The position numbers were made by a program. Below are positions 39,001-42,000 of a DNA stretch of 64,000 nt, piece by piece. The DNA lies in the IMG/VR virus record IMGVR_UViG_2531839666_000014; one strand, written 5' to 3'. Numbering within the stretch: position 1 is the first letter of the stretch; each line of letters starts with the position of its first letter. This DNA is from a virus (taxonomy: Duplodnaviria > Heunggongvirae > Uroviricota > Caudoviricetes).

Positions 39001-42000
39001 ATCAGGTGCCTCAAAACAAAACGCCTGCTTTTTAAAGCAGGCGTCTTTAACTTCATTCATAAATTCAGGGTTGCGGGAATTTCTCACCACACGCTGCATA
39101 TACCGGAGAATTTTTTCACTCACACTCTCACCACAAAAAAGAACAATGTGACTGTGCTGTGTCTTCAGCGACAGAAGGATGACGGAGAACGCTTCCGATA
39201 ACCAACACGGCTGGCGTTCTCCGCAAAAAATAAATTACCAGCCGACAGACATACCCGCAGCAACACCTGAACCGTTCTGGGTATCCCATGAAGCATTCAA
39301 ACGTACAGCAGAATTTTCAGTGGTGCGGAAGTGCATACCTGCTGCGATAGCCTGCTCATCACGGTAGTTACTTGCAGCCATACCAAAGGAGTACGTTTTA
39401 CCCTCAACAACAGGAATGGCAGTCATCGCCATTGCTCCTGCAATACCTGCATCTGCACGTTTACGGTTTTTCTCCACCTCATCACGTAACTGACGGAATT
39501 GCTGATTAGTACTACGCTCCAGGGTACTGACCCGGTTATCTGTGTAGGTATTAGCAGACTTCAGTGTCTGTGCATCACCCTGAATACGGGCATTCTCTTC
39601 TGCAATACGATAGCGCTCTAACTGACCATAGGTTGCGGCATCCGCAGCCTGAACACCATCACGAAGCCCACCAATTACACGATTCCCCACATTTACTTCA
39701 TCGGGGCGAGTGGTCTGAGAGTTAGCCCCTACAGCAACACTGTTCGTATGGTTTGCAATGGCGTTGTAACCGACAGCAGTGGCGTTTTCTCCGCCTGCTG
39801 TTGCCCCGCCACCAACCTGAGTTTTACCTGTGCCCAGAGAAGACAGACGGGCGTGAATATCTGTTACATCTGCAGCAGAAAGACCAGTGTCAATAGTGGA
39901 GTCTAGCGGGTTTACAGACTTCATTTTAATTTCATAAATATATTCACTGATTTCAGGAACATGTCTTGAATACGTTTTTCCATCAGCGCCCACTGTCGTG
40001 ACCACGCCTTCGCCATCTGCACTAAAGAGAATTTGATTGGTTTTTGTGTTTACAAAATAAGCTGTCTCATTCGCATAGTCATAATATGAGACAATTTCAT
40101 TACTTCTCGGTGCCCGTAATTCTGTATTTGTTAACCCGGACTCGCCGTAATCAAACAGAGAATATTTTAAATATTTCCCTGCCGTATTTTGTATATTTAC
40201 ACTATCTGGTTGTTTTGTGCCTGCATTTACCACTTTTCCATCCAGATATGCTTTTCCTGAGAAGCCGAGGTCTTTCCAAAAATCAATTAAATTTTTATAT
40301 TCATGTCCTTTCAACTGATCAACAGTCACTCCATAATATGAAGTGCCATTAATTCCAGAGGCGTCTGCTGCATATACGCCAGCAGAAAATACCGACAGGC
40401 TTAATGCTGGTATTAAAGCCAACAATAGCTTGCTTGCCTTTTTCATGATGTGTACCCTTATGTTAAATCATGTTATAAATATGTTGACATTCGGAACGCA
40501 AATGTCTTCAGGGATACTACTCATAATAACAAGGCAAATAAAATATTAAAATCAATGGGTTAAGAAAAATTAATGATTAAAATCACAAGAATGCAATACG
40601 CATCAAAAACTTACCCTAAATAACACCAGTATTACTCAGAAAAAACAAAACATTTTCTGTGGTTATTATTTACCATTGATAAATATTACCTCTCTCTGTC
40701 AGCCTGCATTGTATAAAACATACACTACAAACGGGTGCCATATCGGCTGAACCTCAGCAACCAGTTGACGGGGACTTTCGTCCCCGTCGCGGTTTTCCTA
40801 CTGCTTACACTGTAAGAACGCCGCAAACTCCGCTCCCCACAAATTCAGCCGGAACTCACACAGCGAACCGTGCAACATCCAGATAGTGAAGATAACCGTC
40901 ATACAAATTGTGACGGTGATAAGCGATTTTTGCGACATAGCGCTTGACTCCTTTTACAGAGAGGCGCTAACCTTCTACTTGCTTAAGGTATGATGATTAG
41001 GGCCTCGGGTTAACGTTAAGTTGACTCGGGGCCTTTCCACATCAGGCCTTCAGGTTCTCCCTCCAGCCATCAGCCGAAAGGCACCCACGCATAATTTACG
41101 GTTTTTGCCCTGTACGGGCAATAAAAAACCCGCCATCACAGCGGGTAGTAAACGGTTACCGGATACAGGTCAGAATTTCAGGCCAATGCCAGCAGTAACG
41201 CCACTCGTGCGCCAGTCGCCAGAGCCGGAACCTTCGTAAGCCACATCCAGTGTAACACTCTCATTCAGGTTAAACTGTGCACCTGCAGCCCACGCAAGGG
41301 AGGTTTTTTTCGTGCTGTTGCTTTCAGAAAATCCGCCACTACTGTTAATATTGTCCTTAATTTTCAGGTCAGCGCTAACTTTAGCAACGCCCATCCCTGC
41401 CATCGCATATAAACTCATGTACTGATTAACCCGCCATGAAGGCCCCGCTAACAGACTCCAGTAATTCGCCCTGATATCCGTTCTGGCAGAAGCTGCCGGA
41501 TTCTTAATCTTCCTGGTATGATCGGCTGACTGCACATCAATAAATGTCTGTGAGTTAGTGAGAGAACGCGTCCATGTAAAAGAGGTGATAACGCCAAAAT
41601 CATCCGTTATCTCGTAGCGATACCTGATATTAATGCCCTGTGGATTTTTATCCTTGCCTTCATATCCACTGACCCGACCATCTGTATATTCGCCCAATGA
41701 AGAAAAGTAGTTTCTGTTGACGAAATGACTGAAAGTCTCCCTGTTATGAGCAGTCGCATCCTTTACAAAATCCTTCAGTCCCGGAAACTGAAAGTGCGCA
41801 TACCCCAGAGAAATTGTATGGTTTCCTTCTGCTGCATGTGCAGATAAATTTACACAGGCAATCCCGGAGATTGCACACACAACCAGTGTTGCTATACTCT
41901 TCATTTAAGATATCCTGTATTCAGATAACACGCTAAACTTTTTAATAATACATCTTTTTAGACATTTTAAATGAATATTAAAGACTCGCTTCAACTAATC

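Follow-up and report, generated by a model that had tools for sequence, protein, structure and literature searches.

The hok/Sok locus of plasmid R1 combines a small membrane toxin with a characteristic set of RNA elements: pairing of the mRNA ends (tac with fbi), a 3' stem-loop ahead of fbi, an internal box able to take over tac after 3' trimming, a GAGG-containing leader hairpin, and an antisense promoter that overlaps the region of the hok Shine-Dalgarno (SD) sequence. In R1, the last stem-loop shields the truncated hok mRNA from 3'-5' exonucleases, and translation of mok at least to the hok SD is mandatory (PMC9841398). Related loci have been described as hokA/sokA in Escherichia coli K-12 (b4455) and as hokW-sokW in Sakai prophage 5/933W (PMC8621323). 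Here, we describe a minus-strand open reading frame (ORF) at 40798-40938 of a 64,000-nt stretch of Caudoviricetes DNA (IMG/VR record IMGVR_UViG_2531839666_000014; this whole stretch is referred to as the window). Judged from its sequence, the ORF is an intact gene for a Hok-type membrane toxin that is equipped with predicted antisense-RNA control elements and carried as prophage cargo adjoining lom. The toxin and the RNA elements named for R1 in the first sentence all have a counterpart at this locus, a putative one for the antisense promoter and a predicted one for the takeover of tac. The locus differs from R1 in its peptide, in a window copy without mok frame, in the low score of the Rfam sok model, in a hok-strand 3' hairpin that lacks a U-run, and in its location in a prophage instead of a plasmid.

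The locus as such is not new: annotation and cataloguing precede this work, and the identical peptide was included in a toxicity assay. A preliminary description of this region had translated the 46-codon ORF exactly as we do and had called it unannotated, which applies to older records only. The peptide is identical to RefSeq/PGAP entry WP_000078907.1, named "Hok/Gef family protein", the gene of which is flanked by an Ail/Lom gene and a YadA-like (Eib-type) gene in genomes of Shiga toxin-producing E. coli (STEC) and adjoins lom in O157:H7. The 1999 record of phage 933W (AF125520) leaves the ORF without annotation. Other records use diverging names: the RefSeq record of Shigella phage 75/02 (NC_029120) calls it "MokW-like host killing", while in the phiSTEC1589-Stx1c record (PQ600364) the ORF is "hypothetical", lom is labelled "Bor" and the YadA-like gene "terminase large subunit".

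A survey of Hok peptides lists the identical sequence as 72_1589, a member of a high-abundance 60%-identity cluster distinct from cluster 93, which holds HokA (Escalera-Maurer et al., bioRxiv 10.1101/2025.08.07.668861). The coding sequences of this entry and of WP_000078907.1 differ from the window copy by synonymous changes only. According to the text of the survey, 72_1589 was cloned as the pAZ3 derivative LRP157 for an arabinose-induced toxicity assay, and 42 of 45 constructs were toxic, with 19_179, 60_1482 and 69_1540 named as the only non-toxic ones (bioRxiv 10.1101/2025.08.07.668861). By this text, 72_1589 falls into the toxic set. The text also states that mok, Sok and mRNA structure were expressly left out of the analysis. 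The map of RNA elements presented here and the apparent absence of mok are thus added detail on a catalogued gene and not a new kind of system.

Family membership and conservation of the peptide

The assignment of the peptide to the Hok family is close to certain, and the preliminary description was right in proposing a type I toxin gene of this family. The Pfam model HOK_GEF (PF01848) matches with 33.2 bits against a cut-off of 22 (E = 4e-8), where residues 8-44 cover positions 6-42 of the 42 profile positions. Among the NCBIfam models, the HokA equivalog NF007290 scores best (38.4 bits), which does not reach its curated cut-off of 89. The same holds for the subfamily model NF007279 (Hok family toxin; 22.7 bits against a curated cut-off of 73), and PGAP still names the peptide a Hok/Gef family protein despite this score. 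In BLASTP comparisons, identity amounts to 45% with K-12 HokA, 31% with the HokW-type peptide from the other hok locus of the window, and 30% with R1 Hok. HokA, already considered the closest in pattern, is hence the nearest named relative as well as the best NCBIfam model.

A search of 5.8 billion proteins retrieved 56 relatives, mostly of 46 amino acids (aa), from E. coli, Shigella and Salmonella. Wherever the source gives any name for one of these homologues, it is Hok/Gef. In an alignment of 30 relatives, C27, E28 and C44 are invariant or nearly so; these residues match L30/C31/E32 and position 48 in the sequence logo of the Hok survey (bioRxiv 10.1101/2025.08.07.668861). The peptide has the build expected of a Hok/Gef toxin: roughly 50 aa, a hydrophobic helix towards the N-terminus, a conserved (S)LCE motif, and a second position with Cys or Tyr near the C-terminus. 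The ORF is under purifying selection, with a family-wide ratio of non-synonymous to synonymous polymorphism (pN/pS) of 0.39, and nine distinct coding sequences lead to the identical peptide. The peptide belongs to the Hok 60%-identity cluster 72 and is a relative of HokA.

The gene is part of a unit of approximately 366 nt, with 2,978 occurrences spread over 1,750 of 5,426 complete E. coli genomes. It also occurs in 198 phage records, nearly all of them of Shiga toxin (Stx)-converting phages, such as 933W, VT2-Sakai, phi24B, Min27 and Shigella phage 75/02; the phiSTEC1589-Stx1c record is 100% identical across the locus. Intact units were found across Escherichia, Salmonella and Citrobacter, and in Shigella at the protein level only. 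A scan of assembled genome contigs yielded seven loci, three of which come from non-enterobacterial assemblies: Xanthomonas pisi (an 857-bp contig, 100% identical), a Planococcaceae metagenome-assembled genome, and Vagococcus (L002, L003 and L005). These near-identical hok loci most likely represent enterobacterial or phage contamination of the respective assemblies.

RNA elements on the sense and antisense strands

Alignments of about 60 relatives from differing genomic contexts delimit the RNA unit. Homology starts at a promoter-like motif, TTGCCx-17-TA[GAC]A[TAG]T, the hexamer positions of which are kept across these contexts, followed by GGGTGCC, and it stops right past GGCACCC. From these edges, the start of the Rfam alignment described below and the fold, we predict the ends of a 354-nt hok mRNA (Table 1). 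This RNA has a minimum free energy (MFE) of -152.9 kcal/mol (z = -7.2) with paired 5' and 3' ends, the 5' GGGUGCC..CGGCUGA pairing with the 3' UCAGCCG..GGCACCC. RNAalifold recovers the end helix, the leader hairpin and the 3' hairpin.

The pairing is well supported by the alignment. For 26 counted pairs, 98.1% of the cells are standard-paired, compared to 34-52% after a shift of the 3' partners by one to three columns. Changes on both sides were seen in 11 of these pairs, part of which, in the inner end helix, go back to a coordinated one-base shortening on both strands; none of 500 shuffles was as good. The two helices of tac/fbi are 95.7% and 98.1% paired, with four pairs changed on both sides, and three of the six counted pairs of the leader hairpin show compensatory changes. 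At the class level, the pairing of cognate tac and fbi is favoured by about 3.3 kcal/mol over non-cognate combinations. When cognate and non-cognate 5' and 3' ends of individual sequences were compared by permutation, 498 of 2000 permutations were as good, an uninformative outcome; the end helix is mostly invariant.

A perfect 9-bp hairpin behind the hok stop codon had been reported in the preliminary description at 40768-40789 and taken for a fold-back element. The hairpin is real and looks functional, although the reported position is off by one base, and it is the 3' stem-loop preceding fbi rather than the fold-back element itself. Across the relatives, 99.6% of its cells are paired, and four of its nine pairs are compensatory. 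By analogy, it would correspond to the last stem-loop of a 3'-processed hok mRNA. The R1 3' hairpin has a U-run on the sense strand, whereas no U-run follows the hairpin on the hok strand here. On the plus strand (40766-40799), where CGGTTTTCC comes next, the same hairpin is scored as an intrinsic terminator, which could halt antisense read-through into hok. At the opposite edge of the unit, the terminator of lom (41128-41146, minus strand; an 8-bp stem, then T6) directly abuts the putative hok -35, so that hok transcription is probably insulated from read-through of the late operon.

When the RNA is trimmed to the hairpin (41086-40766), its 5' end is predicted to re-pair with the internal box GGAAAGGCCCC. 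The prediction for the truncated RNA thus reproduces the tac/ucb refolding logic known from R1 (PMC9841398). After truncation, the predicted accessibility of the stretch downstream of GAGG, where the 5' end of Sok would bind, rises from 0.30 to 0.44, with an increase in 25 of 25 relatives. The ucb-like box is invariant in the E. coli-type copies. In the model, a refolding step of the tac/ucb type may be inferred from these predictions.

On the plus strand, a predicted promoter with a Sok-like arrangement is located upstream of hok, at higher coordinates, where the preliminary description had expected a Sok promoter. This arrangement is kept in all 59 scored family members, with spacers of 17-18 nt; the -35 reads TTGnnn in 52 and TTTACT in 7, the -10 TAACCT in 56, TATCCT in 2 and TAAGCT in 1. 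The -35 overlaps the hok SD. As for the promoter of the sense strand, the proposal builds on position and conservation. A transcript starting at about G40981 would enter the complement of the leader hairpin. In the window, this hairpin has an energy of -25.4 kcal/mol on the plus strand versus -11.9 kcal/mol on the sense strand; it is complete only on the plus strand because sense C-A mismatches become G-U pairs there. Across the relatives, the means are -20.9 (antisense) versus -12.7 kcal/mol (sense), and the antisense form is the more stable one in all 15 variants. The hairpin of the 3' untranslated region (UTR), used as control, slightly prefers the sense strand. In our modeling, this strand asymmetry is the best in-silico indication of a putative Sok-like RNA of approximately 57-60 nt.

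The search of the region with hok/sok covariance models, as proposed earlier, gave a divided result. The Rfam model RF01794 (sok) matches over its full length (positions 1-157; E = 2.2e-6 in a 1-kb search), but its 36.4 bits fall short of the gathering score of 59; a scan of the whole window at gathering scores gave no match at 40733-41086. The model matches the hok strand, where it effectively represents the hok leader, and its position 1 aligns to 41086. The positional homology of GAGG to the mok SD of R1 is taken from this alignment.

Table 1. Predicted elements of the hok locus adjoining lom, and the second hok/Sok locus of the window
Feature	Position	Strand	Description
Putative hok promoter	41093..41121	-	-35 TTGCCC 41116-41121, 17-nt spacer, -10 TAAATT 41093-41098
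Predicted full-length hok mRNA unit, 354 nt	40733..41086	-	putative +1 G41086 to fbi end C40733
tac-like 5' element GGGUGCCUUUCGGCUG	41071..41086	-	pairs with 40733-40750 in MFE, centroid, RNAalifold consensus and pair counts
ucb-like box GGAAAGGCCCC	41028..41038	-	putative; also 5' arm of the leader hairpin
Leader hairpin, putative Sok target	41000..41034	-	3' arm with the GAGG counterpart of the R1 mok SD
hok SD, AAGGAG	40948..40953	-	9 nt ahead of ATG; read from the sequence
hok ORF	40798..40938	-	46 aa, MSQKSLITVTICMTVIFTIWMLHGSLCEFRLNLWGAEFAAFLQCKQ; read from sequence and translation
3'-UTR stem-loop GACGGGGAC-GAAA-GUCCCCGUC	40767..40788	-	perfect 9-bp stem, 4-nt loop; starts 10 nt past the hok stop
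fbi-like 3' element UCAGCCGAUAUGGCACCC	40733..40750	-	pairs with tac
Putative Sok-like promoter	40944..40973	+	-35 TTGACT 40944-40949, 18-nt spacer, -10 TAACCT 40968-40973
Predicted Sok-like antisense RNA, about 57-60 nt	40981..41040	+	5' single-stranded part, 15-bp hairpin 41000-41034, CUUUCC; putative ends
Second hok/Sok locus	26313..26637	+	Rfam sok 111.5 bits at 26313-26487, then 51-aa ORF (MMQQKAML...DYESEK), HokD/HokW type

Regulation of the locus and competing explanations

Implementing all facts, we regard it as very likely that the locus is an intact type I toxin-antitoxin locus of the hok/Sok type with an R1-like switch, forming a self-contained prophage cargo. In the proposed course of events, a weak promoter would give rise to the 354-nt mRNA, which would be inert as long as its 5' end (tac) is locked onto its 3' end (fbi). 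Slow trimming from the 3' end would halt at the stable 3' hairpin; the freed 5' end would then re-pair with the ucb-like box and the leader would open. A short, unstable antisense RNA from the plus strand would bind the opened leader and lead to repression or decay, and once this RNA is lost, the 46-aa Hok would be made and would damage the inner membrane. Such a device could, by analogy, serve prophage retention, abortive infection, or lysis and phage release, the latter as for hokW. What doubt remains is mostly about regulation of the R1 type and about whether translation of the native locus takes place at all.

Several observations speak against such an R1-like switch. A generic sigma-70 scan with a 9/12 criterion finds no promoter on either strand at the locus, and the score of RF01794 stays below gathering. 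The tail of the Sok-like terminator is short (CUUUCC, with three U only). Upon truncation, the mean predicted accessibility of the hok SD rises from 0.21 to 0.25, a small gain, while the SD of the window copy opens more (0.19 to 0.37, also predicted). Covariation of the box with tac gives a mixed picture, being clear in the E. coli class and some Salmonella variants and not overall. According to the introduction of the Hok survey, chromosomal hok loci tested earlier gave no post-segregational killing (bioRxiv 10.1101/2025.08.07.668861). Finally, when all three leader frames of the window copy are followed from ATG, GTG and TTG starts, none reads past the hok ATG.

The mok-like overlapping frame foreseen in the preliminary description is hence missing from the window copy. 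The frame from GTG 41040 ends at TAG 40975, 37 nt short of the hok ATG. None of the aligned relatives has a start codon where, by homology, mok would begin as in R1, directly behind the conserved GAGG on the 3' arm of the hairpin in the leader. Among 28 relatives, nine carry a read-through frame of 52-79 codons that opens at a conserved (G)ATGTGG and closes within hok, at +80 or +134; this frame hinges on indels within a variable stretch and lacks conservation. Without a mok frame, translation of hok in the window copy must therefore start at the strong hok SD or make use of the short leader ORF between GTG 41040 and TAG 40975. One possibility, which we put forward tentatively and would not expect to be the likelier outcome, is that cluster-72 hok is a naturally mok-less hok/Sok variant, where the antisense RNA and the tac/fbi/ucb switch act on Hok translation directly or via the short, non-overlapping leader ORF, and which is redundant with hokW in Stx phages.

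The missing mok frame is also the starting point of the main rival explanation, namely that of a hok relic in decay that is silent at the level of translation. In that case, ORF and RNA elements would persist by recent descent and by hitch-hiking in Stx phages, and the native mRNA would never yield toxin without mok. This is in agreement with the requirement for mok translation up to the hok SD in R1 (PMC9841398), with the sporadic retention of such a frame among the relatives, and with the inactivity of chromosomal hok loci in post-segregational killing. Plainly degenerate copies do exist: in two of them (L025 and L093), promoter and tac are replaced by unrelated sequence, and in a third (L060) tac is mutated (GGACACC) and mismatched to its own fbi. 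However, a relic is difficult to reconcile with a unit that is intact in the 1,750 E. coli genomes and across genera, with compensatory changes in three helices. Neither the pN/pS value nor the nine coding sequences for one identical peptide point to decay; the SD AAGGAG is strong and properly spaced, the promoters are conserved on both strands, and the identical peptide is toxic when expressed, as stated in the text of the survey. We consider a silent relic unlikely.

Far less probable is that the gene is a true orthologue of HokA, i.e., that the hokA locus was mobilised by phage. Apart from its rank as best model and closest named protein, HokA shares MxQK at the N-terminus, WM, SLCE, and AAFLxCK at the C-terminus with the peptide, and both cysteines are directly encoded in each; the K-12 hokA mRNA likewise begins with GGGTGC and ends with GCACCC. 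Yet the equivalog cut-off is missed by a wide margin, on which ground orthology was rejected, and the survey places the two peptides in different 60% clusters. HokA has 50 aa instead of 46, and the leader downstream of GGGTGC is unlike that of K-12 hokA, which is split by IS150. A chance ORF in the lom-eib intergenic region, with the hairpin as a mere terminator of neighbouring genes, might be suggested by the short ORF, the terminator-like plus strand and the negative promoter scan, but is effectively refuted and of negligible probability given the significant Pfam match, dozens of homologues named Hok/Gef, a separate lom terminator, and a hairpin that has no U-run on the hok strand and covaries within a conserved 354-nt unit.

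Prophage context and the second hok locus

The intact hok/Sok-type locus favoured here is embedded in a 933W/Sp5-like (Stx1c-type) prophage, where hok is located in the late region between lom and the Eib/YadA-like gene. The genome of JNEC-KY171 served as collinear reference; collinearity of NZ_CP075665.1 is confined to the part right of about 27.5 kb. In this reference, the prophage starts at the equivalent of about 23.0 kb of the window, is inserted in ynfG, and runs rightwards. Its early genes, among them one for a 51-aa Hok/Gef protein, are followed by the gene for a giant LPD5/LPD38 protein and then by the YadA-like gene, hok and lom. Beyond lom follow tail fibre genes, an N4-gp56-type capsid gene, portal and terminase. 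The same arrangement and the same two Hok proteins are found in the O157:H7 prophage that adjoins the rut genes. No Stx A-subunit motif was found inside the 64-kb window.

The gene to the left of 40733 varies: it is Eib/YadA-like here (39235-40446, minus strand), whereas in 933W and O157 its place is taken by a hypothetical gene of the L0129 type. Since homology ends after GGCACCC and the next gene differs, the 3' edge of the hok unit is a cargo-swap point. The giant LPD5/LPD38 gene (27576-35918, minus strand; approximately 8.4 kb), whose product is typical of 933W-like short-tailed Stx phages, comes after the cargo cluster and is annotated as a pseudogene with an internal stop in one strain and as intact in another. 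Further Rfam matches in the window are two STnc100 copies at the right end (63544-64000, minus strand), DicF (5387-5438, plus strand), the IS3 ALIL frameshift pseudoknot (399-515, minus strand) and sRNA-Xcc1 (23319-23403, plus strand), the last a short way into the prophage from its left end.

The preliminary description had counted two type I toxin loci in this prophage, the other one hokD-like at 26482-26637. This second locus is real, as seen from its Rfam sok score (Table 1) and from the primers of the hokW study, of which YO-350 matches exactly and YO-349 with one mismatch (PMC8621323). Both loci are type I hok loci of the same phage lineage. They differ in that HokW has 51 aa and belongs to a HokD-like cluster, and in that hokW is located in the early, left region and not next to lom, with a Sok that passes the Rfam gathering score.

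Two hok loci are the normal state of the 933W/Sp5-like lineage, and the records of VT2-Sakai and 933W show the cluster-72 hok unit in Sp5 and 933W. Among hok-carrying phages in general, 3.5% have two, as reported in the survey (bioRxiv 10.1101/2025.08.07.668861). Term searches of the hokW-sokW study retrieve no mention of a second hok locus (PMC8621323). Because Sp5/933W-type Stx phages carry two different hok loci, a deletion of hokW-sokW alone leaves some Hok activity in the phage. If the locus acts as proposed, it could, redundantly, help to retain the prophage or to time lysis and phage (and Stx) release. Should cluster 72 indeed be mok-less, this abundant Hok cluster would provide a convenient natural case for studying how translation of hok is gated without a leader peptide.

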